From contig DAIDGV010000015.1 of NCBI GenBank assembly GCA_027452205.1, forward strand, positions 84,171 through 148,170: DNA of 64,000 bases, written 5' to 3'. Under the pieces are notes generated by a model. The model had not been told where the DNA came from and made no database searches. It saw nothing but the letters and a program-made list of their open reading frames with translations. Below are positions 17,405 to 48,101 of the stretch, piece by piece (the first letter of the stretch is position 1; every line of letters starts with the position of its first letter). Position numbers and translations under genes: made by a program. This stretch comes from a candidate division FCPU426 bacterium (GTDB lineage: Bacteria > Oederibacteriota > Muellerivitia > Muellerivitales > Muellerivitaceae).

Positions 17405-18336
17405 TAGAGGATCAATCCTTGTTCTTGTAAGAGTTTCTTGAATTCCAACTGACCCTGGACCTGTTCCGGCCCATAGGTGTAGTCGATGTTCTTTTCCAAG
17501 TATTCCTTGGATTGGGTATGGCGGAACACCCAGATACCTTTGTAGTTGTCCGCCACCTCCGCGAAATGCTTCACCCCTTCGTTCTTCGAGGCCAAGAGGT
17601 CATTCTCGATCTCCCGGGCGATCTGCACATTCCGGGCCATCCAGACGGCATAAACAAAAGGTTTCCCGGTCCGGCTGGTCCATTCGGCTCCTAGGTCGGT
17701 CACGGTCATCCCCGTCGGGGCGGAGATCAAGGCGTTATCTCCGAATTGCAGGGTGGCTTCCCAAGGCTTCACTTGGTTCGGGTGGAAGGTCTTCATGTCC
17801 ACGCTCACCACTTCTAAGTTCTTCACGCCATACCATTTTTTGAGTATCAACTTGGCCAGCAAAACGGAGGTTTGAGAGCGGTCATCCACGAACAAACGTT
17901 CCACGCTCTTCAAAGGACCGTGGGACAAGATGCGGACGCTTTGGACCGGACCCTTCGACGTGATAGCGCCGATGGGGATGATGGTCAAAGAGGGATCCAA
18001 CAAATAAGCCGCGATCGGGGCCAAGGCCACATCCACCTGGGCGGACTTGAGGGCTTTCGCCATATCGATCGGGGCGACTTGGGTTACATGATGGTGCTTG
18101 GCCAATTGCCAGACCAGGGGTTGGGCATTCAAGAAAGGAACGACGGCCACATTCATCGGCTTGGCCTTGAACTCCAGTTCCACCGGAGGCGGAGGAGGAG
18201 GCGCGACAGGGGCCGCAGGAGCGGCGGTGGCGGCCGGAGCGGCAGCAGCGGGTGCGGAAGTAGCGGCAGGCGCCGGGGCCGCAGCAGCGGCAGCAACCGG
18301 TTGGGCTGGTGTATTAGCGTTTTCGGTCATTTTCAT
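17404..18336 (-). CDS. mqnA: MqnA-type menaquinone biosynthesis protein (chorismate dehydratase family) with an Ala/Pro-rich N-terminal extension
   Basis: The core starts NVAVVPFLNAQPLVWQL. No CPND motif of MqnD is present. GAGGA SD sits before the ATGAAAATG start. Confidence 0.7.
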   Translation of the reverse strand: MKMTENANTPAQPVAAAAAAPAPAATSAPAAAAPAATAAPAAPVAPPPPPPVELEFKAKPMNVAVVPFLNAQPLVWQLAKHHHVTQVAPIDMAKALKSAQVDVALAPIAAYLLDPSLTIIPIGAITSKGPVQSVRILSHGPLKSVERLFVDDRSQTSVLLAKLILKKWYGVKNLEVVSVDMKTFHPNQVKPWEATLQFGDNALISAPTGMTVTDLGAEWTSRTGKPFVYAVWMARNVQIAREIENDLLASKNEGVKHFAEVADNYKGIWVFRHTQSKEYLEKNIDYTYGPEQVQGQLEFKKLLQEQGLIL

Positions 18337-18356
18337 TCCTCTTTATAAGGGATAGT

Positions 18357-19475
18357 TCAACGAACAACCGCTTCTTGAAGCATCGGTTTCAACTCTTTGT
18401 ACAGCGTATCCCGTTCCACAGGAATGCGTCCCGCGTCACGGATCAAAGCTTGCAGGTCCTTCGCCGTCATGGCTTCGGGCGAATCCGCCCCCGCCATACG
18501 ATAGATCTTCTCGTCGATAACCGTTCCGTCGATATCGTCCACCCCAAAGGCCAGGGACATTTGGGCCAGTTTCACTCCCATAGAGATCCAATAAGCCTTG
18601 ATGTGGTCGAAATTATCCAGATAGACCCGGCCCACTGCCAGGGTCTTCAGGTCTTCAATACCGCTCGGGCGGGCAAAGTGGTCCATTTGGGTATGGTCCG
18701 GATGGAAAGCCAAGGGAATAAAGGTTTGGAAGCCCTTGGTTTCATCCTGCAATTCACGCAAACGGCGCATGTGATCGACCCGGTGTTCGTACTTTTCGAT
18801 ATGGCCGTACAGCATCGTGGCGTTGGTGCGCATGCCCATCTTGTGGGCCGTCCGGTGTACCGCCAGCCATTGCTCAGCGTTCCCTTTTCCAGGGCATATT
18901 TCTTCACGGACATCCGGATGGAAGATCTCCGCGCCGCCGCCCGGCATGGAACCCAGCCCCGCGGCCTTCAAACGGGTCAGGACTTCCTCGTGGGTCATGT
19001 TGTATTTTTCGGCGAAAAAGTTGATCTCCACGCCCGTGAAACACTTCAAGTGGATTCCGGGCACCGCTTGCTTGAGGATGCGCAACATGTCCTCGTACCA
19101 TTCAAAGCTGTAATTGGGATGGAGCCCGCCAACGATGTGAAGTTCGGTGATACCTTCCAATTCATAGGCTTCCCTGGCTTTGGCGGCCAGTTGCTGATGG
19201 GTGAACTCAAAAGCCCCTTCTTCCCCGGGGAAACGGGAAAAGGCGCAGAACTTACAGGTCGTGGCGCAAACATTGGTGTAATCAATGTGGCGGTTCTTGT
19301 TGTAGTAGGTGTTATTGCCGTTCTTGCGTTCGCGAACGATGTTGGCCATGGCGCCAAGAACATAGAGGTCATTGGTTTGATAGAGACGCAACGCGTCGTC
19401 GTCCGAGACACGGACACCCTTCTCGACCTTGTCGTAAATATCTTTAATTGGTGATTGATCCAACAAACGCTTCAA
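18357..19475 (-). CDS. mqnE: Radical SAM aminofutalosine synthase
   Basis: YYNKNRHIDYTNVCATTCKFCAFSR. I chose the TTG start at 19475, which overlaps the ubiA-like stop as TTGA. The ATG at 19523 is the alternative. Confidence 0.75.
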   Translation of the reverse strand: MKRLLDQSPIKDIYDKVEKGVRVSDDDALRLYQTNDLYVLGAMANIVRERKNGNNTYYNKNRHIDYTNVCATTCKFCAFSRFPGEEGAFEFTHQQLAAKAREAYELEGITELHIVGGLHPNYSFEWYEDMLRILKQAVPGIHLKCFTGVEINFFAEKYNMTHEEVLTRLKAAGLGSMPGGGAEIFHPDVREEICPGKGNAEQWLAVHRTAHKMGMRTNATMLYGHIEKYEHRVDHMRRLRELQDETKGFQTFIPLAFHPDHTQMDHFARPSGIEDLKTLAVGRVYLDNFDHIKAYWISMGVKLAQMSLAFGVDDIDGTVIDEKIYRMAGADSPEAMTAKDLQALIRDAGRIPVERDTLYKELKPMLQEAVVR

Positions 19476-20341
19476 AGCCAAAGGGTTGCTCCTACGACGC
19501 AAAAATAGATAACGGATATCCATCCGTTCAAAGCCATCATTTGCGGGGAAAGAGTGAACTGATAGCTTTTGCCGGTCTTTTCCAAGGAATAAGCCTTGAG
19601 ATGTTGGAAGATCAAGGCCGCGGCAACCAGCGCTAAACCCGCGAAATAGCCTCCGCGAAAGCCCGCTTGAACCCCAAAACCAGCGAGGAATCCTAACATA
19701 CAGGCATGGAAGAATCGAGAGGCATACAAGCTGGCCGGGACACCCCAACGCACTACCCACGATTGAAGGCCCGCTTTTTTGTCAAAAGCCTCGTCTTGGG
19801 TCGCGTACAAAATATCAAAACCCGCTAAAAAGCAAATGACCGCGCCCGTCAACCAAAAGGGTGTCACCGAAAGCTCTCCGGTGGCCGCCACCCAAGCCCC
19901 AACCGGAGCGACCCCCAAGGCCAATCCCAGGAATAGATGGGATGTCCAAGTGAACCGTTTGGTATGGGAATAAAAGAAAAGAATGGCCAAAGCCAGAGGG
20001 GCAAGTTTAAAAGCTAAAGCGTTTAGCGGGTAACAAGCCAATACAAATCCAAATCCACAAAGGACCGTTAAGAGCGCGACTTGAGTCCGGCTGATCCGCC
20101 CCGCCGGAATATCCCGTTTGGCTGTTCGGGGGTTCTTGGCATCCACATCCGCGTCCACCAACCGGTTATAGGCCATCGCCGCCGTACGGGCCAAGACCAT
20201 GCACACAACTACCCAAAAGAGAACATGAAGAGAAGGTTTTCCCCGGGTCGCGGTCAGAAGACTTGCCAAAGCGAACGGAAGCGCGAAGACCGAATGGGGT
20301 AACACCACCAAATTGGAAATGACTTGGAGCTTTTTAAACAT
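19472..20341 (-). CDS. UbiA-family aromatic prenyltransferase (menaquinone pathway, MqnP-like)
   Basis: 289 aa from the ATG at 20341. Polytopic. NRLVDADVD Asp-rich motif. Confidence 0.85.
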   Translation of the reverse strand: MFKKLQVISNLVVLPHSVFALPFALASLLTATRGKPSLHVLFWVVVCMVLARTAAMAYNRLVDADVDAKNPRTAKRDIPAGRISRTQVALLTVLCGFGFVLACYPLNALAFKLAPLALAILFFYSHTKRFTWTSHLFLGLALGVAPVGAWVAATGELSVTPFWLTGAVICFLAGFDILYATQDEAFDKKAGLQSWVVRWGVPASLYASRFFHACMLGFLAGFGVQAGFRGGYFAGLALVAAALIFQHLKAYSLEKTGKSYQFTLSPQMMALNGWISVIYFCVVGATLWL

Positions 20342-20912
20342 TCTTGTGTTTGATTTCCTTCGCTTCTTCGGCACGCCATCGATTCGAGACTTCCGCTTCG
20401 ACCCCTGCGTGGTCATAGACCCGGGCCACGACCGTATCGACCAGTTCTTCGATGGTCTTGGGATTGCCATAAAAACTGGGTGTCGCTGGGATGATGTGGG
20501 CTCCGGCCAAGGTCAGCAATTCCATGTTCTTGATCTGGATGAGGGACAAAGGCGTTTCCCGGGGCACCAGGATCAGCTTACGGCTCTCTTTAAGGAACAC
20601 TTCCCCAGCGCGGGTGATGAGGTTATCGGCAATACCGTGGGCCATCTTGCCCAAAGTAGCGGTGGAGCAAGGGATAACTACCATGGCCTCGAACTTGTTC
20701 GAGCCGCTGGCTACCGGAGCGGTCAGATCTTTTTCGTCCCATTCTTTGACGTGGGGCGGCAGGTTCAGCCCACCTTCATGGGAAGCTACGATCTGGGCGG
20801 ATTTGGAAACGGCCGCGTGCACTTCCCAATCGTCATACGGAAAGTGTTGGAAGAACCGGCGGGCATAAATGGTTCCCGACGCCCCCGTGACCGCGACAAA
20901 GATCTTCTTCAT
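20334..20912 (-). CDS. ubiX: Flavin prenyltransferase UbiX
   Basis: 192 aa. MKKIFVAVTGASG N-terminus. UbiX-like throughout. Confidence 0.9.
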   Translation of the reverse strand: MKKIFVAVTGASGTIYARRFFQHFPYDDWEVHAAVSKSAQIVASHEGGLNLPPHVKEWDEKDLTAPVASGSNKFEAMVVIPCSTATLGKMAHGIADNLITRAGEVFLKESRKLILVPRETPLSLIQIKNMELLTLAGAHIIPATPSFYGNPKTIEELVDTVVARVYDHAGVEAEVSNRWRAEEAKEIKHKNV

Positions 20913-20921
20913 GTAAATCCT

Positions 20922-21611
20922 TTACTTACGAACAGCGACCACGCTATGGGCCACACCCATGGTGCGGCTTTCAATATGAACATCCTTGAAGCCATTCTTT
21001 TCCAAAAGTTGTTTGAATTCCTTCACGCTGACAAAGCCCTTGGCTGAATCCCTCAAGTAATTGTAGGCATCCTTGTCCTTAGAAATTGCCCCGCCCCGCA
21101 TGGGCATAATGGCATTCACATAGACCACGTAAGAAAGCCCAGCCAAGAGGCCTGTGGGTTTGAAGAACTCCAGAACGACCGCTTTCCCTCCTGGGCGCAG
21201 CATACGGGCCATTTCCTTCACGCCCTTTTCGAGCGAATCCAGATTGCGCATCCCGAAACCGCAAACCACCGTATCGAAGGTCATGTCCGGAAAAGGCAGT
21301 TTCAAAGCGTCCGATTCCACATAAGCAAGGCCCGTTTGAGCTCCGCCCTTGTTCTTGGCCAAAACCAGCATGGGCTTGGAAAAATCAGCAAGAACCACTT
21401 GGGCGTTAGGGGCTTTTTCCTTCACCACTAGGGCAAAATCACCGGTGCCGGCACAAAGGTCCAATACCTTCGAAGGCACGAAGCCATCCTTCATCATTTG
21501 AGCAACCGAGCTTTTGCGCCAGGAAATGTCTTGGTTGAAAGACAGGCTGTGGTTGGCCTCGTCATAGGTCCCGGCGATGCGTCCGAACATGCTTTGGATC
21601 TTCTGGCTCAT
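20922..21611 (-). CDS. ubiE: Demethylmenaquinone/ubiquinone methyltransferase
   Basis: 229 aa. F(G)RIAGTYDEANHSLSF start and the SAM motif VLDLCAGTGD. Confidence 0.9.
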   Translation of the reverse strand: MSQKIQSMFGRIAGTYDEANHSLSFNQDISWRKSSVAQMMKDGFVPSKVLDLCAGTGDFALVVKEKAPNAQVVLADFSKPMLVLAKNKGGAQTGLAYVESDALKLPFPDMTFDTVVCGFGMRNLDSLEKGVKEMARMLRPGGKAVVLEFFKPTGLLAGLSYVVYVNAIMPMRGGAISKDKDAYNYLRDSAKGFVSVKEFKQLLEKNGFKDVHIESRTMGVAHSVVAVRK

Positions 21612-21633
21612 TTCAATTCCTTTAATGGGTTGT

Positions 21634-23082
21634 TCAAAGAAGGCCGTATTTTTTCAGGATAGGCATTACTTTGTCTTCGACCTTTGGGTCCATGGTCAGT
21701 TCATCGGGCCAATCCCGATTGAAACCCTCTTCTTTCCATTTTTTGGTCGCGTCGATACCGATCTTGCCGCCCCAGCCCCACATGGGCGAGGTATGGTCGA
21801 GAACATCAAGCGGGCCTTCGGAAATGAGAACATCCCGTTTGGCGTCCATGCAATTGCCTACCCGCCAAAGGACTTGACCGTAATCGTGGACATTGGTGTC
21901 TTTATCCACCACGATCAGGATCTTGTTGAGCATCATCTGCCCCAGGCCCCAAAGGGCGAACATGACCTTACGGGCATGCATGGGATATTGTTTGTCGATG
22001 GAAACAATGGCCAGGTTGTGGAACACGCCCTCGACCGGCAACTCCACGTCCACGATCTCCGGCAGCACCTTTTGCATCAGAGGCAGGAACAACCTTTCGG
22101 TGGCTTTGCCCAAATAGCCGTCTTCCATGGGGGGCTTGCCCACAATGGTGGTCATATAGATAGGGTTCTTGCGACGGGTAATACAGGTGATATGGAACAC
22201 CGGATATTGGTCCGCCAGGCTGTAGTAACCCGTATGGTCCCCAAAGGGACCTTCGGTGCGGCGCTCGCCCGGTTCCACATAACCTTCCAGAACGAAATCC
22301 GCGTCCGCATGGACCATCAGGTCCACTGTCTTACACTTCACCAGTTCGACCGGTTTTTTGCGAAGGAACCCGGCGAACAAAAGTTCATCAATACCTTCCG
22401 GCAAAGGGGCTGTGGCCGCATAGGTCAAACAGGGATCGCCGCCCAAAGCCACCGCCAACTCCAAACGTTTGCCCGCTTTTTCGGCTTTACGGTAATGCCC
22501 AGCGCCTCCGTGGTGAACTTGCCAATGCATCCCGGTGGTTTGACCGTCATAGACCTGCATGCGATACATCCCGATATTGCGGATCTCCGATTCCGGGTCC
22601 TTGGTATAGACCAGGGGGAAGGTAATGAAGCGTCCGCCATCGTCGGGCCAGCATTTGAGGATCGGCAATGTGGTCAAGTCCGGCTTGGTCTCCACCACTT
22701 CCTGGCAGGCGCCTTTGGAAACTTCCACCGGCGGGAACTTGGCCACCTCGGCCAGTTTGGGCAAGAACTTCAGTTTATCCACAAAGCCCTTGGGCGGTTT
22801 GAGCTCTAAGAGTTCTTTGATCTCGGCGGCGTGCTCTTCCAGGTTTTCTACACCCAACGCCCAACTCATGCGTTGGTAAGACCCAAAAGCATTGATCAGA
22901 AGAGGAAAAGAACTGCCCTTAGGCTTTTCGAACAGCAGGGCTTTGCCGCCCTGGGGGGATTTGGAAACCTTATCGACGATGGCTGTTACTTCCAGGACCG
23001 GGTCTACCTCATCGGTGATCCGAATCAATTGGCCTTTTTTTTCAAGGAATTCGACGAATTCAGTTAGTGAGGAATAAGCCAT
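21634..23082 (-). CDS. UbiD-family (prFMN-dependent) decarboxylase, menaquinone-associated
   Basis: 482 aa. UbiD-like throughout. First gene of the cluster. Confidence 0.9.
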   Translation of the reverse strand: MAYSSLTEFVEFLEKKGQLIRITDEVDPVLEVTAIVDKVSKSPQGGKALLFEKPKGSSFPLLINAFGSYQRMSWALGVENLEEHAAEIKELLELKPPKGFVDKLKFLPKLAEVAKFPPVEVSKGACQEVVETKPDLTTLPILKCWPDDGGRFITFPLVYTKDPESEIRNIGMYRMQVYDGQTTGMHWQVHHGGAGHYRKAEKAGKRLELAVALGGDPCLTYAATAPLPEGIDELLFAGFLRKKPVELVKCKTVDLMVHADADFVLEGYVEPGERRTEGPFGDHTGYYSLADQYPVFHITCITRRKNPIYMTTIVGKPPMEDGYLGKATERLFLPLMQKVLPEIVDVELPVEGVFHNLAIVSIDKQYPMHARKVMFALWGLGQMMLNKILIVVDKDTNVHDYGQVLWRVGNCMDAKRDVLISEGPLDVLDHTSPMWGWGGKIGIDATKKWKEEGFNRDWPDELTMDPKVEDKVMPILKKYGLL

Positions 23083-24826: not shown

Positions 24827-26509
24827 ATGGATAACCCCGCCAACCTCGATAAAGCCAAAACGCTCAAAGCGGCCCAAATGTTCTTTCGTGAAGGCGAATG
24901 GGACAAGGCCTTGACGGAATACGGAAGATTGCTGGCCATCGACCGGAATGACCCGGACAGCCTGGCCGCCGTAGCCGACACTTACGCCAAAAAGAAATCC
25001 TTTCAACTGGCCTTCGAATTCTATTTCAAGGCCGTTCCCCAGTACTTGGTCCAAAACCGTTTGGACGGAGCCATCCAATCCTACAAAAAGATATCCAAGT
25101 TGGATCTTTCCAAACTCTCCAGCGATGTCCGCATGGATATGAATATTTATATAAGGTATGTCGAAATCGACGAAGCGATCCGGGATAAACGATACGAGTT
25201 TGCCATCGCTCCCCTCTCGAAGCTTTCAAAACTACGGCCTCAAGACCCCATGATCCCCGCCCTCCTGAAAGCCATCAGACTCCAGATCGACCAGATCGCC
25301 CCTTCGGTCCAGCGTTATCAAACCCTCGGCGACACCTTCATGCGGAACGACTTCTCGGACAGAGCTTGGGACATGTACCGGAAAGCCGCCGACATGGACC
25401 CCCAAACCCTCTCGACCTTGCCCGAGTTAGCCACGACCTTCGTCAAACAAAACCATCCAAACGAGGCCAAGAAAGCCTATTTATATTTGGCCGAACAGAG
25501 CTTGGCCAAAGCGGACCTGGGTAAGGCGATCGAATATTCCCAAAAGGCCATCGAACTGAAAAGTTTAGAGGCGGGATATATCTTGGGGCTGGCCCATTTC
25601 CAAAAGCGAAATTGGCTCGATGCCAAGACCGAATTCGAGAAACTTCTGCGCATAAAGGTCAACCATCTAGGAGCCCTGACCCATTTAGCGAGAACGTTCG
25701 TTTTTTTATCCCAACCGGAGAAAGCCAAAGAGACTTTCCAAAAAGCTTTCAAGATCGACGAGAACAATCCCATGGTCCAGGAAGCTTGGGTGGATTTCTG
25801 CCTACAAGGGCCTGATAAGGAAGCGGCCATTCCCCAGTTGGCTTTTTTATTGGAAAAGGTCGTCACCGAGCACAACGCTCAGAAGATCCTTGAATACTCG
25901 AAAATCATGATCCAGATCAGGCCGGATCTCGTTTCCGCCCGGGTCAAATTGATCCAGGCCCTTCAAGCCTTGGGAGACCTTCAAGGTGCCGCGGATGCTT
26001 GCCGTTCCTTGGCCCTCGTCTATGAACAACAGGGCCTTTTGAATGAGTCGGCCGAATACTTGGCCAAAGCCGATCAGTTGGACCCCGATCATCAAATGGC
26101 CACCAAACCAGCCTCCCCACCACCTTCACCATCGGTTTCAGAACAGCCTCCCCCGGTCACATTACCGACCATTCCAGACATCCCCTTGATCCAGGAATCC
26201 GAGCCCATTGTCGACGAGGAAGAACCCGCCCCCGAACCATCAGAGCGACCAAAACCAGCTCCTCAACCTGTTGTTGCGGCGCAAGCGCCACCACCGATTG
26301 TTAGCCTACCGCCGGAGCCCATTCCCATTGATGGACTTTCAGCGCAAATGACCACCGCCCAGATATGCGTTAACCAAGGTCTTTTGAGGGCCGCCATCGA
26401 CATCTATCAGCAGATCCTTACGACGAACCCCGACATGCCGGAAGCCCGTCAAAAGCTGGCTGAAGTGAACGCCCTTTACCTTAAAAAATGGATGGAAAAG
26501 AAGAAATAG
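24827..26509 (+). CDS. TPR-repeat protein with a Pro-rich linker and no signal peptide
   Basis: 560 aa. Multiple TPR-like repeats, then a P-rich segment (PASPPPSPSVSEQPPP...), then a terminal TPR-like unit. Confidence 0.8.
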   Translation: MDNPANLDKAKTLKAAQMFFREGEWDKALTEYGRLLAIDRNDPDSLAAVADTYAKKKSFQLAFEFYFKAVPQYLVQNRLDGAIQSYKKISKLDLSKLSSDVRMDMNIYIRYVEIDEAIRDKRYEFAIAPLSKLSKLRPQDPMIPALLKAIRLQIDQIAPSVQRYQTLGDTFMRNDFSDRAWDMYRKAADMDPQTLSTLPELATTFVKQNHPNEAKKAYLYLAEQSLAKADLGKAIEYSQKAIELKSLEAGYILGLAHFQKRNWLDAKTEFEKLLRIKVNHLGALTHLARTFVFLSQPEKAKETFQKAFKIDENNPMVQEAWVDFCLQGPDKEAAIPQLAFLLEKVVTEHNAQKILEYSKIMIQIRPDLVSARVKLIQALQALGDLQGAADACRSLALVYEQQGLLNESAEYLAKADQLDPDHQMATKPASPPPSPSVSEQPPPVTLPTIPDIPLIQESEPIVDEEEPAPEPSERPKPAPQPVVAAQAPPPIVSLPPEPIPIDGLSAQMTTAQICVNQGLLRAAIDIYQQILTTNPDMPEARQKLAEVNALYLKKWMEKKK

Positions 26510-26525
26510 CCGGACCCGGGACCCG

Positions 26526-28208
26526 CTATTGTCCCGGTTTGGTGCTGGGCGGTGTCACCTTGTCGATATTCTCGTTTGCCGTTTTGGCCTTAGGATCGAT
26601 CTTCAAGGCCGCTTGATAACTTTGATAAGCCAAGTCCGGCTCACCCAGGTGATATTGGTAGATGACCCCCAGCAAACAATAGGTCTCCGTGTAATAGAAA
26701 CTGGGCGTGGTCGGGTCATGCGCGTCGATCACCTGACGCAATTTTTTGACCGCCGATTCATAGTGCCCCTTCTCGAAGTCGTCTTCCGCTTCCCAATACT
26801 TCCCTTCGATAGGGGTCGTAGTCGCGTCGATCTCGTGTTTGAGCTTCAACGCCGTTTCGGTGGTCGGATCGATCTTCAAGGCCGCATTGCAGAATTGGTG
26901 GGCCAAGAAGTGGTTCGGAAGGTCGAACTTGTAAACGACACCGATCATGGCGCAGGCCTCGGCGTAGAAGAAGGGCTGTACGGTCGGGTCCTTGAGGACG
27001 ATGGCCTTGAACCAGTTATCCAGGGCCTCGGGATAATTCTTGGCCACATAAGCTTGGATACCGGCCCGGTAATATTCCATGAAAGACTTGGCTGGCACCG
27101 GTGTCGGCGGCGCCTGGACGGGGGTCAAAACCGGCATAGGCGGCGTGGGCGCGATTGTCGGCGCTGGGGAAGGCTTGGGCGTTGGCGTAGGGGTCGCTTC
27201 CGTGCCCAATTGCACGCTCAACTCGATCTGGTTCGTGTTGCCCAGGTCGCCGAGGGTCATGAAAGAATAATCCAACTGCAGGTCACCAAAACGCAATCCC
27301 GCGCCGGCGGTCAGGCCCGTCACCCCGGTCAGGTCCTGGGTATTGATGAAGCGATAACCCGCCCGGATGGCCAAAAGCCCCTTGTACCAATATTCCCCCC
27401 CAAAACCCACATTGGTGAATTGATTGTTGGTCAGGAGCAGGTCCGACTCACTGGCTAAGGTCAGATAATGCTGTTTTGGCTTTGCATCGAACCAGATCTG
27501 GCCCGAGACCGCTGTTTTCAATACCAAAGGCAAAAGTGAATTGTCGATATTGAATCCTAAGTTGGACAGAACTGCCGATAACACCAAGGGGCTTTGGGGC
27601 ATTTGATAAAGGAGACCCGCGTCCAGGGAAGCGGTCTGGTCCGGCTGGCTCTGTTGGATATTGTCGTAAATGAAATGGCCGGTCAACCCGGCGTGCAGGC
27701 CCATTCCCAGGTTCGTGCCAAAGGCCGCGAAGCCGTTCACCGCCATGGGCGTATAGCTACCCGTGGGGACCAGATTTGGACCGACGACGTTATAAGTGGA
27801 GATCGACCCGAAGTTGATGTAATCCCCACCGACAGAAAAGCCCGACCCGCCCTCGGCCAAGGTGAACGCGAAATGATCCAAGGAAAGGTTCTGGATCCAA
27901 AAACTGTGGGAGGCCGTCAAATAGGTCCCACCCAACAATCCAAGTCCCGCCGGGTTCAGGACCGCTTCATCCACCGTGTCCGGTACGGCCCCCATGGCCT
28001 CGGCCATGGCCCCATCTCTGGCGTTGTCCGGGATCCGGAGCCAGCTGGTCCCCATATTGACCGGGGCCGATTGGGCACGAAGCATCGGAACGTTCAAACC
28101 CAGGACGAGGATAAGGAGTAGACAGGCTTGAGACTTTTTCAGTATCAATGGACCTTTCGATATATGACGGCCGATCGCTTGAAAAAGATGATAACAGGCG
28201 TTCCTCAT
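26526..28208 (-). CDS. PorV/PorQ-like outer-membrane beta-barrel fused through a Pro/Thr linker to a C-terminal TPR-like domain
   Basis: The N-terminal WLRIPDNARDGAMAEAMGAVPDTVDEAVLNPAGL resembles the PorV-family motif. Beta-rich to about residue 335, PT linker 336-374, then two TPR-like units each ending ALKIDP. The ATG overlaps the upstream stop as ATGA. A TTG start about 20 codons further in is possible. Confidence 0.65.
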   Translation of the reverse strand: MRNACYHLFQAIGRHISKGPLILKKSQACLLLILVLGLNVPMLRAQSAPVNMGTSWLRIPDNARDGAMAEAMGAVPDTVDEAVLNPAGLGLLGGTYLTASHSFWIQNLSLDHFAFTLAEGGSGFSVGGDYINFGSISTYNVVGPNLVPTGSYTPMAVNGFAAFGTNLGMGLHAGLTGHFIYDNIQQSQPDQTASLDAGLLYQMPQSPLVLSAVLSNLGFNIDNSLLPLVLKTAVSGQIWFDAKPKQHYLTLASESDLLLTNNQFTNVGFGGEYWYKGLLAIRAGYRFINTQDLTGVTGLTAGAGLRFGDLQLDYSFMTLGDLGNTNQIELSVQLGTEATPTPTPKPSPAPTIAPTPPMPVLTPVQAPPTPVPAKSFMEYYRAGIQAYVAKNYPEALDNWFKAIVLKDPTVQPFFYAEACAMIGVVYKFDLPNHFLAHQFCNAALKIDPTTETALKLKHEIDATTTPIEGKYWEAEDDFEKGHYESAVKKLRQVIDAHDPTTPSFYYTETYCLLGVIYQYHLGEPDLAYQSYQAALKIDPKAKTANENIDKVTPPSTKPGQ

Positions 28209-30340
28209 CGTGACACCACGATCTTCTGGAAGGTCGTACCATTACTGCCATCTTGGTAGTTCAACTTGACGCGGGCCAGATAAATTCCGGGAGAAAGCCC
28301 GGTGATATTCCACGAGGGTTGATAAGGACCCGCTGCGGTCCAATGGACCATCGATTCCCCCACCCAATCAAAAATATCCACCTGACAGGACAGGATTGGT
28401 TTGTCCGGGAATAGGATCAAATTCCCACCTGGAGCCACCGGCACCGGTCCCAACACCACTTTTCCTAATCCCGAAAGGTCCTGGGTAATGGTGGGCGTAG
28501 CACTGGGTGTGGTCAAAGTAGTAACGGTGTTGGTCTGCGTTTGGGTAGCGGTCGCCGTACAGGTGGCGGTATTGGTGTTCAGGGGAGTATTGGTCGAGGT
28601 TGGGGTCGAGCTGCTCGTGGCCGTGCTGGTCGAGGTCGAACTGCTGGTCTGGGTATTGGTGGCCGTCTGGGTCGAGGTGTTAGTGGCCGTATTGGTGCCG
28701 GTATTAGAAACCGTACTGGTAGCCGTATTGGTCGCGGTATTGGTCGAAGTGTTCGTTGAAGTGTTGGTCGAGGTATCCGTGGACGTATTAGTTGAGGTAT
28801 TTGTAGCGGTGTTGGTGGCCGTGTTGGTTTGGGTATTCGTGACCGTACTGGTGTTCGTGCTGGTATTGGTCGCAGTATTGGTTGAAGTATTAGTGAAAGT
28901 ATTGATGGCCGTATCGGTATTTGTGGCCGTATTGGTAGCGGTGTTTGTAGAGGTTTGGGTCGAAGTATTGGTCTGCGTATAGGTTACCGTATTGGTGTTG
29001 GTACTTGTCGCGCTGTTCGTGGCTGTGTTGGTCGCGGTGTTCGTCGATGTCGATGTGGCTGTCGCGGTATCCGTCGATGTATCGGTGCCCGTATTGGTGG
29101 CGGTATTTGTGGCGCTATTCGTCGCCGTGTTCGTCGAGGTATCGGACGATGTTGCGGTTTGGGTATTGGTCACCGTGTTGGTGTTGGTGGCCGTATTGGT
29201 CGATGTATTCGTGGCACTATTCGTTGCCGTATCGGTCGAAGTATCGGTCGAGGTGCCGGTAGCGCTGTTCGTTGCCGTATTGGTGGCCGTATTGGTAGCT
29301 GTCGATGTATCGGTGCCCGTGTCGGTCGCCGTATTGGTCGCCGTATTGGTCGAGGTGTTGGTCGCCGTATCGGTGACCGTACTGGTGTTCGTTGCGGTAT
29401 TGGTCGCCGTTGATGTGGAAGTGCTGGTCGATGTGCTGGTAGCCGTATTGGTTGAAGTGGCCGTCTGTGAATTAGTGACCGTCGCCGTGTTCGTTGCGGT
29501 ATTGGTGGCGGTCTGGGTGCTGGTCGCCGTGCAAGTATTCCCTTTAGGAGGGACGATGACGTAGGACTGGTTGTTATTGAAAAGTTGGTAGAACTGACCA
29601 CTGTTGTAATAGCCCGTCGCCCCAGCCGTACCTGTCAGGCTGATGTTCAGATAATACTCGACCAAAAGATAGTTACCGTTGGTGTTATAAGGCGGTTGGG
29701 ACGTCGTGAAAGTGACGTTGACACCCGGGTCCGTATAGTAGTTACCGCCAACGCCGCCGGTCTGCTGGGTTACCGGCGAACCGACCGCCGTGAAAAGTTG
29801 GGTCACAGCCGAACCGGTATAAGCGTAAACAGCCACCATTGGTTGATAACTGAAGGTCACCGAACCTGTGCCAATGAAGGCCGCGCCAAGGTTGTATTCA
29901 TAATTTGTGCTAAAGGTCCAGGTCCCGCCGCCAACGTCATAACCAATGGTACTGGGCATTTCCCAACCATAACCTTGGGCCGTTCCTGAGGGAGGCGTGG
30001 TATTCAACGCGGGACTATTGGTGGCACCCGGTTCGAATAAGTAATAGTTATTGTATGGAACTGTTAATGGGGAGCCAGAGGAACCGGCCAAGGGATAGAC
30101 GATCTCCGTGATCAGCGACTCATCAAAGGACCCATCTTGAGTCCCACCTGCGACAGTGCTCAGATCGTAATAATCAGTGCTGGCATGTTGGGGATTTGTC
30201 GTGCCATTGGTCAGGTAATAAGTGGTTTGAGCGTAGAGGGATGGGACCGTTGCCGAGAAGAGACAAAAAAAGGTTAAACGAATCGCCAAAAAACGATTCG
30301 AGCGGTTGGTGTAGATTGAACGGAATTTGTCGGCAACCAT
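28205..30340 (-). CDS. Secreted 711-aa protein: unknown N-terminal domain, 352-residue Thr-X array, T9SS-type/FlgD-Ig-like C-terminal domain
   Basis: Signal-like N-terminus ending SLYAQ. The C-terminus ...GLSPGIYLARVKLNYQDGSNGTTFQKIVVSR resembles Por secretion tail domains. Confidence 0.8.
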   Translation of the reverse strand: MVADKFRSIYTNRSNRFLAIRLTFFCLFSATVPSLYAQTTYYLTNGTTNPQHASTDYYDLSTVAGGTQDGSFDESLITEIVYPLAGSSGSPLTVPYNNYYLFEPGATNSPALNTTPPSGTAQGYGWEMPSTIGYDVGGGTWTFSTNYEYNLGAAFIGTGSVTFSYQPMVAVYAYTGSAVTQLFTAVGSPVTQQTGGVGGNYYTDPGVNVTFTTSQPPYNTNGNYLLVEYYLNISLTGTAGATGYYNSGQFYQLFNNNQSYVIVPPKGNTCTATSTQTATNTATNTATVTNSQTATSTNTATSTSTSTSTSTATNTATNTSTVTDTATNTSTNTATNTATDTGTDTSTATNTATNTATNSATGTSTDTSTDTATNSATNTSTNTATNTNTVTNTQTATSSDTSTNTATNSATNTATNTGTDTSTDTATATSTSTNTATNTATNSATSTNTNTVTYTQTNTSTQTSTNTATNTATNTDTAINTFTNTSTNTATNTSTNTSTVTNTQTNTATNTATNTSTNTSTDTSTNTSTNTSTNTATNTATSTVSNTGTNTATNTSTQTATNTQTSSSTSTSTATSSSTPTSTNTPLNTNTATCTATATQTQTNTVTTLTTPSATPTITQDLSGLGKVVLGPVPVAPGGNLILFPDKPILSCQVDIFDWVGESMVHWTAAGPYQPSWNITGLSPGIYLARVKLNYQDGSNGTTFQKIVVSR
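28481..29536 (-). repeat. Coding low-complexity array: about 176 consecutive Thr-X dipeptide periods
   Basis: Hand count of residues 269-620 gives position 1 of each period as Thr 163 times, Ser 10, Leu 2 and Ile 1, with no register shift. All four ACN codons are mixed. Confidence 0.85.
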
Positions 30341-30440: not shown

Positions 30441-31016
30441 TCAACCCGCACCCTGGTCCTGACGGACCACAAAATAGGCGCCTAGAATCAGCAATAATCC
30501 CCCCACCGCTGGGGCCCAAAGCCAGGCGAGCCCCGGCTGAAGGTACAAATTGAGCCAGGCCATATAGCTGACCGCCCAGCCCACACCCATGGCAAACCGC
30601 ATGGACCGTTCCCCCAACCGGGGGGATATCCAACCCGCCCCATAGGCGGCCATAGCGAAACCCACGCCAAAAAGATGGAGGTCGGCCATGTGCTTGATGA
30701 ACATCTCCGCGCTGTCACCCCGGGCGGAGATGAGCGCCAACCAAACAAAACACCATAAGAGAAGCCAAAGGATGGCCAAAAGGGACAATCCATGGGTGAC
30801 ATACATCCACGTTTGGTTATTTCTCTCGACCCACGAGGGTCTCAAAGACAACAGGATCGCCCCCACGGTCGCCGCGAAACCAAAAAGGATCAGGACCGCT
30901 GGCCACTGGGCCGAGCCATTCTTAAGGTCCGCCGCCAGGGGTTCGTTCCAAAAAACACCTGCCGTCAAAAGAAGCCCCAAAGCCCCGATGCGGTAAAGAT
31001 AGTATCCCCACTTCAT
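30441..31016 (-). CDS. Polytopic membrane protein, unknown function
   Basis: 191 aa from the ATG at 31016, which overlaps the truA stop as ATGA. About 6 hydrophobic segments. Confidence 0.6.
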   Translation of the reverse strand: MKWGYYLYRIGALGLLLTAGVFWNEPLAADLKNGSAQWPAVLILFGFAATVGAILLSLRPSWVERNNQTWMYVTHGLSLLAILWLLLWCFVWLALISARGDSAEMFIKHMADLHLFGVGFAMAAYGAGWISPRLGERSMRFAMGVGWAVSYMAWLNLYLQPGLAWLWAPAVGGLLLILGAYFVVRQDQGAG

Positions 31017-31801
31017 TCCGCTTCCTCTTTTACCCATTTTTTGATCTTAGGGAATTTTGTCGGATAAAAGACCTCGACCAGGAAAAGCCCGGTCGGCGGT
31101 AAGGTAGGACCCGCTTTCTTACGGTCTTTCGACTTGAGGATTTGTCTAATGTCCTCTGGGCGCAGTTTACCCAAACCAACGTACATCAGCGTGCCGCTAA
31201 GGATTCGGATCATTTGATGAAGGAAAGAGACGCCGGTATATTCCAAGACGATGTCTTTCCCCTGGGTCTTGATCTGGATCTTGTGTATTGTCCTTTTGGG
31301 ATTCGCCTTTTTTCCTAACGTGCCGCGAAAAGCGGTGAAGTCGTGGGTTCCTACCAAATACTTGGCAGCCTTACGCATAGCCGCTACGTTGAGCAAAGGC
31401 CGGACATGATGATAGGTATTGCGGTCGAAGACCGTGTAATCCGCCGAATTGCGGATGACATATCGGTACAGTTTTCCCTTGGCGTGATAAGTGGCATGAA
31501 AGGTATCCGGCACCACTTGAGCTTTCACGATACGGATGTCATGGGGCAAAAGACGGTTCAGGACATCCTGGATCTTGGCGACGGGAAGGTTGGAGCTGGT
31601 ATGGAAATTGGCGGTCTGGCCCAGGCCATGGACCCCGGCGTCGGTACGCCCCGCGACCAAAAGATCCACCGGATGGCCGCAAACATGTTGGAGCCTGTTC
31701 TCCAAAGTACCCTGCACCGTCTCGGCCTGGGCTTGCTTTTGCCAGCCCGAATAAGCGGTTCCATCGTATTCGACCGTCAGGCGGATGTTGCGGGTCTTCA
31801 A
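31013..31801 (-). CDS. truA: tRNA pseudouridine(38-40) synthase
   Basis: 262 aa. RLTVEYDGTAYSGWQ and GRTDAGVH motifs. The TTG start overlaps the upstream stop as TTGA. Confidence 0.9.
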   Translation of the reverse strand: MKTRNIRLTVEYDGTAYSGWQKQAQAETVQGTLENRLQHVCGHPVDLLVAGRTDAGVHGLGQTANFHTSSNLPVAKIQDVLNRLLPHDIRIVKAQVVPDTFHATYHAKGKLYRYVIRNSADYTVFDRNTYHHVRPLLNVAAMRKAAKYLVGTHDFTAFRGTLGKKANPKRTIHKIQIKTQGKDIVLEYTGVSFLHQMIRILSGTLMYVGLGKLRPEDIRQILKSKDRKKAGPTLPPTGLFLVEVFYPTKFPKIKKWVKEEAE

Positions 31802-34032
31802 GAGGCCTTCCTGTGCTCCTGGACCTCTTGCATCCGCTCGATCACGCTGACCCCTTTTTGCGCGATGGGTTCCTGGGGATTCAGGTTCAAGGCCGCTTGA
31901 TAGGACGAACGGGCGTCACTGTAATCCTTCATCCCGAAAAAGGCGTCGCCCAACCGGGCGTATAGATGCGGATCCCCTGTTCCGTTAGCCCGTTGCAGGG
32001 CCGTCTGGAAACTATTCACCGCGCTCTCGGGCCTTCCCAATGCCATATAGGTCTCGCCCATCATGGCGTAGATCCGTGCGAAGGTTTGGGGCTGGCGGTA
32101 CTTCAAGGCGTTCTCGAAACTCCATAGGGCGATATTGGGCATTTTGTTCACGAGGCAGAAATAACCGGTAAAATCGTAACCGATCCCGTAAGAATCCCGC
32201 ATGACGTCACTATATTCATCCCAATAACCACGGTCATCGGGATTCAAGTTCCTTAACCGGTAAGTGTCCCACAAAACATTCAACTCGCGGGTCGTGAAGC
32301 TATAGCTCATATCTTTAGTGGCGATGATGCGCCAAAGGAACCCCACCGGGATCGCCGGATCCTCTTTTTGCATCCAGGGGGCGGTGAAGATGTTGGTGAA
32401 GTAGAAAGACCGGTCTTTGGCGTGTTGGCGGATCATATCCTGGACCACCGTTTCGGGCCTCACATCATAGCCTACCGGCACCTTCAAGAAGGGCCACCGT
32501 TTGAACATGGGATCCCGGTACCAGTCGTAAGGGATAAGCTGCATGGTGAAACTGACCACCTCGGGCCTTTTCCCTTCCACGTTCTGAAGGTACCAAAGGG
32601 GCAGGATATCGATATCACCGTTACAAATGATGACCCCGTCCCGGTCGACCGTCTTAAGCATATTGAGCCCCTCGTCGTATGAGCTCACATAGCGGCTTTG
32701 GTCCACCGCTTGGTAGACCACTTGACCGTCCGGCCCGACCTTATCGGTCGCCATGTAATTGAGGATCAAGGGCATCAGGCCAAAGCTCAAACAAAAGGCT
32801 GAAGTGAAGAGCGGAACATAATAGTAAGGCCACTTTTTGGAGAGTCCTTCACAAAGACCCGCCATACCCAAGGCCGCGAATATAGCGATCACCAGGAAGA
32901 CCGGCGTGAAGAAGTTATCCAGCGTCCACTGATAACCTTCCAGAGGATTGTTGAAAAGAATGATGCCCCAAAAGACCCCGGCACCCAGAAAGAAGAAGCC
33001 AAGCGCGTCGGACCACTGTTTCTTTTTCCAGAACCAAATGAAACCAAAGATGGCCAAAGTGTAAAGAAGGAAGCTGAACCCGCCTCCGAACTGATGTTCG
33101 GCGTGCATCCAAAAACGCTTCACGTTACGGACAACAGTGACCATGGAACGCACATCGCCCGTACCCAAATAACCTTTCCGGATCACCGTACCCCATAACC
33201 GGTCCAAAGTTTGAGGATCCCACCAATTGATGATGGGGTTTTGGATGGCCCGTAACGGCAAGTACAAATAGACGGATAAAGCCAAAAGTCCAACGGTGAA
33301 AGCGCGAATGATATTCGCCATTCCAAAAGTGGACAGGACATTCCTGACCTTCTCAAAAAGATCGAAGGGGCGGAACAAAGAGCGGAGGATCTCCGGGAAA
33401 GGAACGCGTTTCTGCGAAGCGAAAAAGAACCATAAATAGGCTGGTGCCATGACGATTTGGTTCGGCCAGTGGTGGGTCAAGCTCATCCCGTACAGGAACC
33501 CCATCAAAAGGAATGATTTGATATACCAGCTCTTCTCCCTCATTTTGAAGAAAAGGAAGAGCATGGCCACGGTCAGCAGGGTGTTCAAGGTATAGATGCC
33601 GCCCTTTGCCCCACAGGCCTGGAACCATTGCTGATAAGAAAAAGCGAACACCAAAGCCCCAAAAACCGACGGGATCTCCCATAACCAAGCGCCCGGTTGC
33701 TGGTCTTCCGACAAGGTCTCCCCGCTCGGGGAGATAAAAACCTTTTGAAGCATCATTTTGAGGATCCAGTAAACGAAGACCACCGCCACGGTCGCGGTCA
33801 TCATGGAACTGAAGGTTACCCGCAGCATGGGCTGGCCCAGGGGCAACAAACAGTTCACGCGGCCCCAGAGGGTATGCAGGGGATACCCGGGTGAGTGACT
33901 GATGGTCAACTTATCGCAGACCATAATGGTCTCGCCGGAATCGTTGATGTTAAAGGAGGCGCAATGGGTCAGGAGATAAAAGAGGAACGTGAAGAAAAAG
34001 AGGAAAGCCGGGATAAGAGAAGGCAGTAACAT
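31798..34032 (-). CDS. DUF2723/TMEM260-like GT-C-fold membrane glycosyltransferase with a C-terminal TPR domain
   Basis: 744 aa. NDSGETIMVCDKLTISHSPGYPLHTLWGR matches the DUF2723 N-terminal motif from memory. Many TM segments. TPR repeats in the last ~150 aa. Confidence 0.8.
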   Translation of the reverse strand: MLLPSLIPAFLFFFTFLFYLLTHCASFNINDSGETIMVCDKLTISHSPGYPLHTLWGRVNCLLPLGQPMLRVTFSSMMTATVAVVFVYWILKMMLQKVFISPSGETLSEDQQPGAWLWEIPSVFGALVFAFSYQQWFQACGAKGGIYTLNTLLTVAMLFLFFKMREKSWYIKSFLLMGFLYGMSLTHHWPNQIVMAPAYLWFFFASQKRVPFPEILRSLFRPFDLFEKVRNVLSTFGMANIIRAFTVGLLALSVYLYLPLRAIQNPIINWWDPQTLDRLWGTVIRKGYLGTGDVRSMVTVVRNVKRFWMHAEHQFGGGFSFLLYTLAIFGFIWFWKKKQWSDALGFFFLGAGVFWGIILFNNPLEGYQWTLDNFFTPVFLVIAIFAALGMAGLCEGLSKKWPYYYVPLFTSAFCLSFGLMPLILNYMATDKVGPDGQVVYQAVDQSRYVSSYDEGLNMLKTVDRDGVIICNGDIDILPLWYLQNVEGKRPEVVSFTMQLIPYDWYRDPMFKRWPFLKVPVGYDVRPETVVQDMIRQHAKDRSFYFTNIFTAPWMQKEDPAIPVGFLWRIIATKDMSYSFTTRELNVLWDTYRLRNLNPDDRGYWDEYSDVMRDSYGIGYDFTGYFCLVNKMPNIALWSFENALKYRQPQTFARIYAMMGETYMALGRPESAVNSFQTALQRANGTGDPHLYARLGDAFFGMKDYSDARSSYQAALNLNPQEPIAQKGVSVIERMQEVQEHRKAS

Positions 34033-35894: not shown

Positions 35895-36722
35895 TTAAGG
35901 AATATTGGTCATGGCGCTGGCTTCATAACTTCTTTTTTCGGCCATAGCTTCGATGAAACAAAGGTAATTTCCCGCCGGCATGGGCCTGTCTTCCTCATCC
36001 TTCCCATCCCAATAGATCTCGTGTTCTCCGGGGTTCAGATTTTCCCCATGTTCATGCTTATCGTAATTGAACTGGCGCACCAGCCGGAATCCGGTCGTGA
36101 AGATCTTCACGTCCACCTCCTTGGCTTTGAAGGTAGAATCCCACTTGAACTTGATCTTGCCGTCCGGCTCGGGCTTGGCTGAAACCGTGAACCAAACCAC
36201 ACCGGGCGTCGAAGTAAGGGTCGGGGTCATGGTGTAGGTCGGTGTGAAGGTTTTGGTCGGAAAAGTACCCGTTACGGTGGCCGTGTTGGTGTGGGTCGCG
36301 GTTGGCGTATTGGTTTTGGTCGGCAAAGTGCCTGTGGCGGTTTCGGTAGGAGTGTTGATGGTCGGTGTCGGGGTGATGGTAAAAGTATGGGTGGCTGTAA
36401 AGGTGTGGGTAGGGGACGGGGTGAAAGTATATGTTGGCAAAGTGCCTGTCACGGTCGGCGTATAGGTTTTCGTCACTGTAAAGGTCTTTGTGATCGTAAA
36501 TGTCCGAGTGAAGGTGGCGGTATAGGTATTGGTCGGCCGGGTTCCCGTTGCCGTACAAGTAAAGGTATTGGTCGGCGTATAAGAAGGGGTATATGACGGC
36601 GTGAAAGTATTCGAAGGAGCTACCATCGTCCAAGTTGCCGAATTGGCAGGAGCGTTGGTCGGCACAGTTTGCGCGTTCGAAAAAGCGGTGACCAATAAAA
36701 AAATAAAAAAGTACTTTTTCAA
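35895..36722 (-). CDS. Secreted Thr-X repeat protein with a FlgD-Ig-like/T9SS-type C-terminal domain
   Basis: 275 aa. TTG start with GGGAGAG SD. Signal peptide ending FSNAQ. TxT array over residues ~38-173. The C-terminus contains [28 protein letters not shown]. Confidence 0.8.
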
Positions 36723-47400: not shown

Positions 47401-48101
47401 TTCCCGCCCAATGACCCGATCAAAAGGACCAAGAACCATACCGCAAAAAAAATGCGACCCCTCTTCGAATAAAGATCGATCGCTTTTCCTTCGGCCTTGT
47501 TGAGATACAGGGAAAAGATATAGTTCAAGAAACACACCGCCAACGCGCCAAAAGAGAAAGCGAATCGGGAATCGGTATACTTGTAGGAGTCATAGACCAA
47601 TAACATCGAGAGGGAGAAATAAAAGCTCATCCATCCCCAGGTCCAATAATGGATCGCTTGGCTTTTCCAATCCGGCACATAATTTTCGGACTGAGGGGAA
47701 TATCCCAAAGCGCGGATGAGGTAGAAGAACAAGAAGAGAAAAAGAAGGCCCATCAATAGCCCAACGAGAAAACTATAGGTCTGGTATTCCAACGAAAGGG
47801 CCAGGACCGTATCGATCCAGATGAAAAAATAGGTCAGGACCCATAGATTGCGGACCATTTCCGGCGTCAGTACCGGAACCCACCGCATCATCAGCACTCC
47901 CATCAAGGCGCAAACCAAAGCAGACCCAAAAACAAACCAGTAAACCCACCCCAACCACAAAGGCTTATCGAAGCCGTTCAGCGCGATCCAACCGTGGGCA
48001 TCCTCGCCCATGGGGATGGTCAGGATAAAAAGGGCATAAATCCAAAGGGTCAGGAGGGAAAAGAGAAAAACCTCGAAAAAATCGCTTATTTTCTGGGGCA
48101 C
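47397..48101 (-). CDS. Polytopic membrane protein, unknown function
   Basis: 234 aa with a GTG start. Translationally coupled to the GT-C gene. Confidence 0.55.
   Translation of the reverse strand: MPQKISDFFEVFLFSLLTLWIYALFILTIPMGEDAHGWIALNGFDKPLWLGWVYWFVFGSALVCALMGVLMMRWVPVLTPEMVRNLWVLTYFFIWIDTVLALSLEYQTYSFLVGLLMGLLFLFLFFYLIRALGYSPQSENYVPDWKSQAIHYWTWGWMSFYFSLSMLLVYDSYKYTDSRFAFSFGALAVCFLNYIFSLYLNKAEGKAIDLYSKRGRIFFAVWFLVLLIGSLGGK

Follow-up and report, generated by a model that had tools for sequence, protein, structure and literature searches.

A PorV/PorQ-family outer-membrane barrel with a tandem TPR-like tail, encoded in overlap with a CTD-bearing putative cargo gene, in a candidate division FCPU426 bacterium

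The barrel gene and its upstream neighbour

Within the 64,000-nucleotide stretch of a candidate division FCPU426 genome analysed here (contig DAIDGV010000015.1, hereafter the window), the gene at 26526..28208 on the reverse strand is one unbroken frame encoding a product of 560 amino acids (aa), in which a signal peptide, a PorV/PorQ-family barrel, a disordered Pro/Thr linker and two duplicated tetratricopeptide repeat (TPR)-like units follow one another in that order. Its ATG overlaps the TGA of a 711-aa open reading frame (ORF) directly upstream (the junction reads ...GTGTCACGATGAGGAAC...), the product of which ends in a C-terminal domain (CTD) resembling those that type IX secretion system (T9SS) cargo proteins carry. 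The features of both genes are collected in Table 1.

The initial annotation of this DNA, made from the sequence without database searches, described a barrel that runs on into a TPR domain as a single ORF, and this description holds. An assembly error or frameshift joining two separate genes would be the trivial explanation of such a fusion, but the frame contains no stop, the identical architecture is present on an independent syntenic contig (P0001/L001, protein 88% identical) and TPR-tailed barrels of 25-50% identity occur on further independent contigs. Nothing was found in favour of an artefact, which the independent contigs rule out and to which we assign a vanishingly small probability.

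The signal peptide has an unusually long N-region, and AlphaFold2 (AF2) gave a predicted local distance difference test score (pLDDT) below 50 over residues 1-23, while A45 and Q46 next to the predicted cleavage site are invariant in our alignment. An alternative in-frame TTG at codon 21 (20 codons downstream), conserved in both the window and L001, would yield a more canonical signal peptide in both. Judging by sequence conservation the ATG is the likelier start, since relatives throughout the family keep the ATGA arrangement; in most related loci a canonical signal peptide begins directly after the ATG, which supports the ATG start in the window too, and the TTG is a possible second candidate. 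The hairpin directly behind the barrel stop probably marks the end of the transcription unit, and a promoter consensus scan of the locus gave background-level scores.

Table 1. Coordinates of the barrel gene, its upstream neighbour and their parts in the window
Feature	Position	Strand	Basis
Whole barrel gene, PorV/PorQ-family outer-membrane barrel with tandem TPR-like tail, 560 aa	26526..28208	-	ORF, NF033709, AF2, Foldseek, family profile
Signal peptide, residues 1-46, predicted cleavage after LRAQ	28071..28208	-	Alignment, AF2
N-terminal hatch/plug region with NPA motif, residues 47-93	27930..28070	-	Alignments, AF2, PorV alignment
Transmembrane beta-barrel with short loops, residues 94-334	27207..27929	-	DSSP strands, mostly pLDDT 80-95; Foldseek
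Pro/Thr-rich disordered linker, residues 335-375 (TEATPTPTPKPSPAPTIAPTPPMPVLTPVQAPPTPVPAKSF)	27084..27206	-	pLDDT 40-56; equivalent linkers in relatives
TPR-like unit 1, residues 376-463, five helices, ends AALKIDP	26820..27083	-	AF2, internal repeat
TPR-like unit 2, residues 464-548, five helices, ends AALKIDP	26565..26819	-	Pfam TPR, AF2
Weak terminator-like hairpin directly after barrel stop	26511..26525	-	Consensus scan alone
ATGA, barrel start codon over cargo stop codon	28205..28208	-	Sequence; 19 of 26 related loci
Putative cargo gene, 711 aa (signal peptide, N-domain, Thr-rich linker, CTD)	28205..30340	-	ORF; syntenic homolog in L001
Cargo N-terminal passenger domain, residues 39-270 (~230 aa)	29531..30226	-	No recognisable family
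Cargo Thr-rich TxT linker, residues 271-616 (~350 aa)	28493..29530	-	Composition, tandem repeats
Cargo CTD, residues 617-711 (95 aa), 7-strand beta-sandwich, T9SS type-A-like	28208..28492	-	TIGR04183, PF18962, AF2, Foldseek

Fold of the barrel and the tails attached to it

The N-terminal part of the protein had been assigned to the PorV/PorQ-family barrels, and both profile searches and structure prediction bear this out. The NCBIfam PorV/PorQ-family model NF033709 matched residues 55-333 along model positions 5-325 of 326 with 109 bits where the cutoff is 90 (E 3.5e-31), and three relatives (L004, L007 and L009) scored 118-147 bits. Against the PorV equivalog model (NF033710) the window protein reached 50.1 bits for a cutoff of 250, and against the PorQ equivalog (NF033711) 70.8 bits for a cutoff of 220; on these scores it is neither a PorV nor a PorQ ortholog. 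The PorQ model outscored the PorV model on the window protein and likewise on L004 and L007, two of three relatives scanned. A profile made from 23 family members recovered Flavobacterium johnsoniae PorV from the PDB over the whole barrel (6h3i_F, E 1.7e-42), with TodX and TbuX at about 1e-4.

The AF2 model, built on the 23-sequence alignment (mean pLDDT 80.8), is predicted to be a barrel with a hatch. Its first Foldseek match in the PDB was the PorV chain of the substrate-bound T9SS translocon (8gl6_F, E 6.5e-14), with all 367 PorV residues aligned at a template modelling (TM) score of 0.67 normalised to PorV, and the next matches were FadL (2e-8), TbuX and TodX (~1e-8). Short helices at residues 52-91 form the hatch, which carries the FadL/PorV-type NPA motif at N85-P86-A87-G-L-G, aligned with NPAKYAF of PorV; N85 is invariant and P86-G90 are nearly invariant (at least 90%) in alignments of 23 and of 59 sequences. 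The DSSP string of the model contains 16 strand segments, from which the exact strand number cannot be read.

Pfam returned no barrel match for the window protein, even when the barrel was searched alone: PF19572 (PorV) was absent even at E 10, UPF0164 (PF03687) gave nothing at E <=1 and PorP_SprF (PF11751) no match, and neither Pfam nor NCBIfam detected Slam DUF560 or TPR_Slam. A wider sample came from a profile search of 1.84 billion representatives, which yielded 49,153 family clusters at E <=0.001; among the best 150 clusters, 58 were long relatives (at least 438 aa), and these were scanned together with the window protein (59 proteins in total). PF19572 matched 40 of the 59, UPF0164, which we take to be a Treponema pallidum family, 46, and Toluene_X 11, with weak PorP_SprF matches in just five.

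Behind the barrel, the Pro/Thr linker and two TPR-like units proposed in the initial annotation are real. AF2 placed a low-confidence stretch at residues 339-375 and then ten helices at residues 376-548 with pLDDT 85-96, and the tail is internally duplicated, its halves sharing 38% identity over 76 aa (E 1e-14). Residues 508-540 in unit 2 score above the Pfam gathering thresholds of TPR_1 (29.2 versus 27.8), TPR_2 (29.7 versus 27) and TPR_8 (27.3 versus 25.7), and this unit also matches consensus TPR proteins in the PDB.

The initial annotation named no precedent for the fusion in PorV. The fusion is not rare: the TPR tail is one among several interchangeable, presumably periplasmic tails (TPR, OmpA, FN3-like and HEAT) that recur on this barrel family in metagenomes. 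The nearest relative, P0001 in the syntenic locus L001, matches in architecture throughout. The next relatives share a barrel of 44-54% identity and a similar Pro/Thr linker that leads into differing tails: a single copy of the window-type TPR-like unit (P0003, L097, L099, L100, L101, L003), an OmpA domain with a helical end (P0002, P0004, P0005, L092, L093, L102), two OmpA domains (L103) or an FlgD_ig-like domain followed by OmpA (L004). At a locus of a Firestonebacteria metagenome-assembled genome (MAG; L006) the tail matches unit 1 and is cut by the contig edge. More distant members carry long TPR arrays (L007, L112), FN3-like repeats (L009, L109, L005b, L111) or HEAT repeats (P0017). Among the 59 proteins scanned, TPR_2 matched 23 and OmpA 16, and TPR_Slam matched three of the long relatives. 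It is in Firestonebacteria, FCPU426 and related loci that the long tails are found; the barrel proteins of Bacteroidota, Ignavibacteria, Rhodothermales and Delongbacteria in our genome collection extend only 0-25 residues beyond the barrel.

Outer-membrane barrels have both of their termini on the periplasmic side. Because of this, and because PorV ends right after its last strand in the alignment with the window family, the TPR tail would be periplasmic. A convergent gene (24827..26509, forward strand), whose stop codon lies 16 bp from that of the barrel gene, encodes another 560-aa protein with multiple TPRs and a Pro-rich segment, which is conserved in L001 and is a possible candidate for a partner of the tail. 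At locus L090 a TPR protein is encoded directly downstream of the barrel on the same strand.

Cargo CTDs and their pairing with barrels

The upstream gene had been proposed to encode a protein with a T9SS CTD, and we can be more specific in calling that domain a type-A-like beta-sandwich. AF2, using CTD fragments found in the database, modelled it as a 7-strand sandwich (pLDDT 87.5), and PorU (6za2) and the CTD of NucA from the translocon (8glk_D, TM 0.78) are among the best Foldseek matches, with E-values of only about 1e-3, as Ig-like folds are common. The T9SS CTD model TIGR04183 matches 11 of 12 cargo CTDs, and cargoes of more distant pairs pass an NCBIfam or Pfam cutoff (L007 26.2 and L090 24.1 bits; L083 28.4 against the Pfam cutoff of 27). 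The rest of the cargo is anonymous. Residues 1-38 form its signal peptide, the whole protein matched no Pfam or NCBIfam family, and the N-domain additionally had no sequence match in the PDB, its sole homolog found being that in L001. The linker consists of 47% Thr with 149 TxT motifs in imperfect 12-nt-based repeats, and the region at 28-30 kb has a GC skew of +0.21 and an AT skew of -0.21.

Adjacency of barrel and CTD genes is a property of the family. The window CTD and a hidden Markov model (HMM) derived from it found the window-type domain at the extreme C-terminus of the ORF directly upstream of the barrel in L001-L006 (E 1e-18 to 1e-30), with a weaker match in L007. In total 171 sequences, metagenome loci included, were scored, and the following counts refer to the 26 best-scoring non-redundant barrels. 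A CTD-ending ORF finishes just upstream of 23 of them, and 19 of the 26 loci share the in-frame ATGA stop/start junction, with some six more ATGA pairs lower in the list. Three paralogous pairs occur on separate contigs (L003, L004, L006) of a single Firestonebacteria MAG (JABDGD01), and L101 (Ga0181520_10046917) has two cargo-barrel cassettes in tandem. Pairs also occur beside barrel-TPR proteins of 25-30% identity: in L083 a 1707-aa Big_1 protein, whose CTD passes the Pfam cutoff, is paired with a 30%-identical barrel-TPR protein, and in L090 (Ga0558121_00039) three paralogs with FlgD_ig tails precede a single barrel-TPR gene that the last of them overlaps by ATGA, so that one barrel may serve several cargoes there. 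The passenger domains are diverse, comprising DUF7948 with SBBP propellers, CarboxypepD_reg (four copies) with Big_1, or nothing recognisable.

Pairwise identities of barrels and CTDs are correlated, with a Mantel r of 0.945 over 23 pairs and of 0.861 in the close clade, values that none of 2000 permutations attained; the pairs thus duplicate and diverge as units, a pattern consistent with cognate specificity, without proving it. The dedicated barrel-cargo pair suggested by the initial annotation is in this way strongly supported by adjacency, ATGA overlap and co-variation across loci and paralogous pairs. The overlap itself would represent translational coupling, by which the barrel is made in step with its cargo, and a fixed barrel:cargo stoichiometry may follow from it.

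In the canonical T9SS loci of our collection the neighbour of the barrel is a CTD protein as well. At the Bacteroidales locus L059 porU (914 bits) adjoins porV, and in both other loci scanned, from an Ignavibacteriaceae (L055) and an unclassified bacterium (L021), the neighbour is the NCBIfam 'T9SS-dependent M6-like inactivated metalloprotease' with a type-A CTD. At these two and at L011, L012, L019, L020, L022 and L023 (an Ignavibacteriaceae, several Delongbacteria and unclassified bacteria) a PorV-family barrel is followed by a protein of ~960-1110 aa, that is, in the opposite gene order.

Gene callers break the cargo genes in the Thr-rich region, and the pairing is therefore invisible in standard annotations; such genes are routinely split into CTD-only fragments and antisense ORFs. 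The sole database entry for the window cargo is an 83-aa CTD fragment (P0172), and nothing else came back when the window CTD by itself was searched against a large protein database. A 12-sequence CTD profile likewise returned just fragments of 65-166 aa; owing to the mis-calling of cargo genes these served as a folding alignment and not for a census. Long antisense ORFs rich in Val/Leu or in Arg span the repeat region (28400..29600, both strands); at L002 several antisense calls take the place of a 1764-aa cargo ORF, and mis-calling was also seen at L086-L089.

A second secreted protein of the window (35895..36722, reverse strand, 275 aa) has a signal peptide, a Thr-rich TxT linker and a C-terminal FlgD_ig domain (PF13860, 28.7 versus 27); no barrel gene adjoins it, and the window-type CTD HMM misses its CTD. 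Some 1.5 kb upstream of the cargo gene and on its strand, an arrangement conserved in L001, lies a gene for a large polytopic membrane protein with C-terminal TPRs (31798..34032, TMEM260-like/GT-C, PF11028, 101 bits), and one might speculate that it O-glycosylates the Thr-rich linkers. A protein of similar layout without a Pfam match is encoded at 45286..47535 (reverse strand). Between truA and the cargo gene, a predicted multi-pass membrane protein of 198 aa without a family match (30441..31037, reverse strand) overlaps truA by 25 nt, has a conserved 204-aa counterpart in L001 and may belong to the same transcription unit.

Possible role of the pair

T9SS components offer several precedents for a barrel that keeps one partner. 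The CTD of PorU is retained on PorV and that of PorZ on PorQ (PMC10202324), and in the solved translocon CTDs bind the extracellular loops of the carrier PorV inside the SprA pore (PMC10994853). The genes of type-B cargo are linked to genes of cognate PorP/SprF barrels that the cargo requires for its secretion and anchorage (PMC12618676, PMC9143113). PorE, the binding partner of PorP, is periplasmic and contains TPR and OmpA-like domains (PMC9143113, PMC12204202), and a disulfide bond joins the C-tail of SprF to the GldK track in the periplasm (PMC12635249). The fused TPR and OmpA tails of the barrels described here resemble this pairing of barrel and PorE, brought together in a single polypeptide.

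Our data suggest, with a probability that we put at roughly 0.6, that the window barrel is a cognate carrier and/or anchor for the CTD of its upstream neighbour, which it would hold or deliver at the cell surface while the TPR tail couples it to the periplasm. The two genes would form a cognate cassette, the cargo being a Sec-exported protein that is presumably surface-exposed and made up of a passenger domain, a long Thr-rich stalk, which may be O-glycosylated, and a type-A-like CTD. The barrel, predicted to sit in the outer membrane with its lumen plugged, would bind that CTD and act as carrier of the cargo, as its permanent surface anchor or as both, along an outer-membrane route that we infer rather than observe, and the tandem TPR module would hang in the periplasm and couple the barrel to a periplasmic partner or scaffold.

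Several points weigh against this interpretation. The window CTD alone stays below threshold on both CTD models, with 21.3 bits against a cutoff of 23 on TIGR04183 (E 1.9e-4, model positions 3-71 of 72) and 17.6 against 27 on PF18962 (Por_Secre_tail). Over the aligned region the barrel has about 90 residues fewer than PorV, and it lacks the long extracellular insertions of PorV, whose loops hold the CTD in the translocon, so the mode of binding may differ. Co-variation of neighbours can come from co-inheritance alone, and an Elusimicrobiales barrel with a HEAT tail has no recognisable CTD gene upstream. Finally, no T9SS core gene (SprA/Sov, PorK-N, PorU, PorZ) was found in the 64-kb window, which is a few per cent of the genome and uninformative on absence, nor any in the Pfam-annotated flanks (~20 kb) of the related loci or among six large ORFs near related barrels, samples too small to show absence; in their place these ORFs and those of the window encode unrelated enzymes (GH44, beta-galactosidase-like, DinG-like).

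This last observation is what an autonomous device would predict, in which the barrel alone or together with BAM, the machinery that assembles beta-barrels, exports and holds the neighbouring CTD protein with no need of SprA/Sov, the TPR tail acting as periplasmic receiver of the cargo; in function such a device would be comparable to Slam/type XI secretion or to two-partner systems. Among named genomes, Candidatus Firestonebacteria and candidate division FCPU426 come closest for the barrel. FCPU426 is Goldbacteria, with Firestonebacteria and Elusimicrobia as nearest neighbours (PMC7031533), and the lineage therefore lies outside the Fibrobacteres-Chlorobi-Bacteroidetes (FCB) group, to which, or to Bacteroidota, the T9SS has been assigned (PMC12398890); moreover, each cargo has its own translationally coupled barrel, and a TPR module with a 14-strand barrel and an adjacent cargo carrying a C-terminal beta domain parallels Slam, for which the TPR_Slam matches of the three long relatives also speak. 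But the FadL/PorV-type hatch with its NPA motif fills the lumen, and a plugged 14-strand barrel is no obvious conduit for a protein; many paralogs have OmpA, FN3-like or no tails, so a TPR receptor step would not be general, and with only ~20 kb per locus seen the absence of a T9SS is not established. We consider it doubtful that the barrel exports its cargo on its own, and unlikely as a general proposition that cassettes of CTD cargo and PorV-like barrel are a modular surface-display or secretion device of Firestonebacteria, Goldbacteria and neighbouring phyla without a T9SS translocon. If true, the CTD-carrier interaction would predate the T9SS machine or work without it.

The barrel might instead be a generic PorV-type shuttle for all type-A CTD cargo of a canonical T9SS, its position next to one cargo gene being incidental. 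Family membership and the best structural match, PorV, fit this, as does the presence in the window of at least one further CTD-type protein without an adjoining barrel (the FlgD_ig protein described above), but it is improbable given the PorV equivalog score far below its cutoff, the three paralogs of one MAG that each stand beside their own CTD gene, the co-variation of CTDs with barrels, the conserved ATGA coupling and the missing long loops. An importer of hydrophobic compounds like FadL or TodX, with a periplasmic hand-off by the TPRs and a functionally unrelated neighbour gene, would account for the fold, hatch and NPA motif and for the UPF0164 and Toluene_X matches among the proteins scanned (the window protein itself does not match UPF0164), and a published barrel-TPR precedent exists in TP0548, TP0859 and TP0865 of T. 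pallidum (PMC8407342). It is nevertheless a long shot, as the PorV match is far stronger than those to FadL/TodX (E 1.7e-42 versus 1e-4) and the conserved adjacency to CTD genes, ATGA overlap, co-variation and OmpA or FN3-like tails would be left unexplained. Both the generic shuttle and the pure FadL-type importer were rejected as leading explanations on these grounds.

The cognate carrier or anchor that we prefer resembles known systems in different respects. PorV itself (F. johnsoniae Fjoh_1555, PDB 6H3I/8GL6; PorV/LptO of Porphyromonas gingivalis) shares the NF033709 family, the hatch with NPA and the gene adjacency to a CTD-bearing protein that stays on it, PorU. Unlike PorV, the window protein fails the equivalog model, has a shorter barrel without the long loops and continues into a 225-aa Pro/Thr-linker and TPR tail, and barrels of its type form several paralogs per genome with their own cargo each, in a lineage outside Bacteroidota and FCB. 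PorQ-PorZ provides the likeness of a PorV/PorQ-family barrel holding one specific partner via an uncleaved CTD (PMC10202324, PMC10947112). The differences are that the window protein is far below the PorQ equivalog cutoff, that its cargo is not PorZ-like and that PorQ has no TPR tail. The porQ and porZ genes are not known to be adjacent or overlapping.

PorP/SprF likewise combines a cognate barrel gene linked to a cargo gene, required for secretion and surface anchorage of that cargo, with coupling to the periplasm via PorE or via the C-tail of SprF and GldK; in the window the TPR module is instead fused to the barrel, the barrel family is not PF11751, the CTD is not type B and the periplasmic module is not a separate lipoprotein, and T9SS dependence has been demonstrated for PorP/SprF. 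In the T. pallidum proteins TP0548, TP0859 and TP0865, a 14-strand barrel of the FadL superfamily, which has a hatch and an NPA/NAA motif, is joined by a short linker to a C-terminal helical bundle that contains a TPR motif and presumptively lies in the periplasm (PMC8407342). Their proposed role is the uptake of hydrophobic nutrients, and no partner of the CTD-cargo kind has been described for them; the likeness to the window protein is drawn from this description. In Slam (type XI) systems an N-terminal TPR module precedes a 14-strand DUF560 barrel, and a gene-linked surface cargo is recognised via its C-terminal beta domain. The likeness to Slam is functional only, the barrel family being unrelated and the domain order reversed, with the TPR module N-terminal in Slam and C-terminal in the window protein.

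The barrel family, the type of CTD and the idea of cognate carrier barrels are already known. Our reading of the open-access literature on Firestonebacteria, Elusimicrobia and FCPU426 with T9SS, and on PorV-like proteins, found no description of the architecture, and in open-access text we did not find described the multiplication of PorV/PorQ-family barrels into cargo-specific cassettes, the family-wide conservation of ATGA coupling, the fusion of modular periplasmic tails to the barrel or the occurrence of such cassettes in Firestonebacteria- and Goldbacteria-type lineages. The current view of PorV is that of one generic shuttle serving type-A CTD cargo in Bacteroidota, cognate pairs of barrel and cargo being known only for type-B cargo (PorP/SprF) and for PorQ-PorZ, and a separate PorE supplies the TPR and OmpA functions in Bacteroidota whereas window-type barrels have a fused periplasmic module (TPR, OmpA or FN3-like). 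Such natural 'Rosetta-stone' fusions support the view that carrier barrels are coupled to periplasmic structures, and their recurrence with a cargo gene in little-known phyla outside the group with described T9SS offers a simple two-gene system for testing CTD-carrier specificity and a handle on the evolution of T9SS sorting.

The remainder of the window is chromosomal, with a ribosomal-protein/SecY/RpoA operon at 49.8-63.7 kb and branched-chain amino-acid genes. Just downstream of the barrel locus, 16331..23082 (reverse strand) holds a quinone-biosynthesis cluster with MqnA-like, radical-SAM MqnC/E-like, UbiA, UbiX, UbiE and UbiD homologs, syntenic with L001; this futalosine/Ubi-type cluster is ordinary housekeeping context. 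A 710-aa secreted protein without a Pfam match (6546..8678, reverse strand) and a DUF4403 protein (1905..3392, forward strand) are apparently unrelated to the pair.

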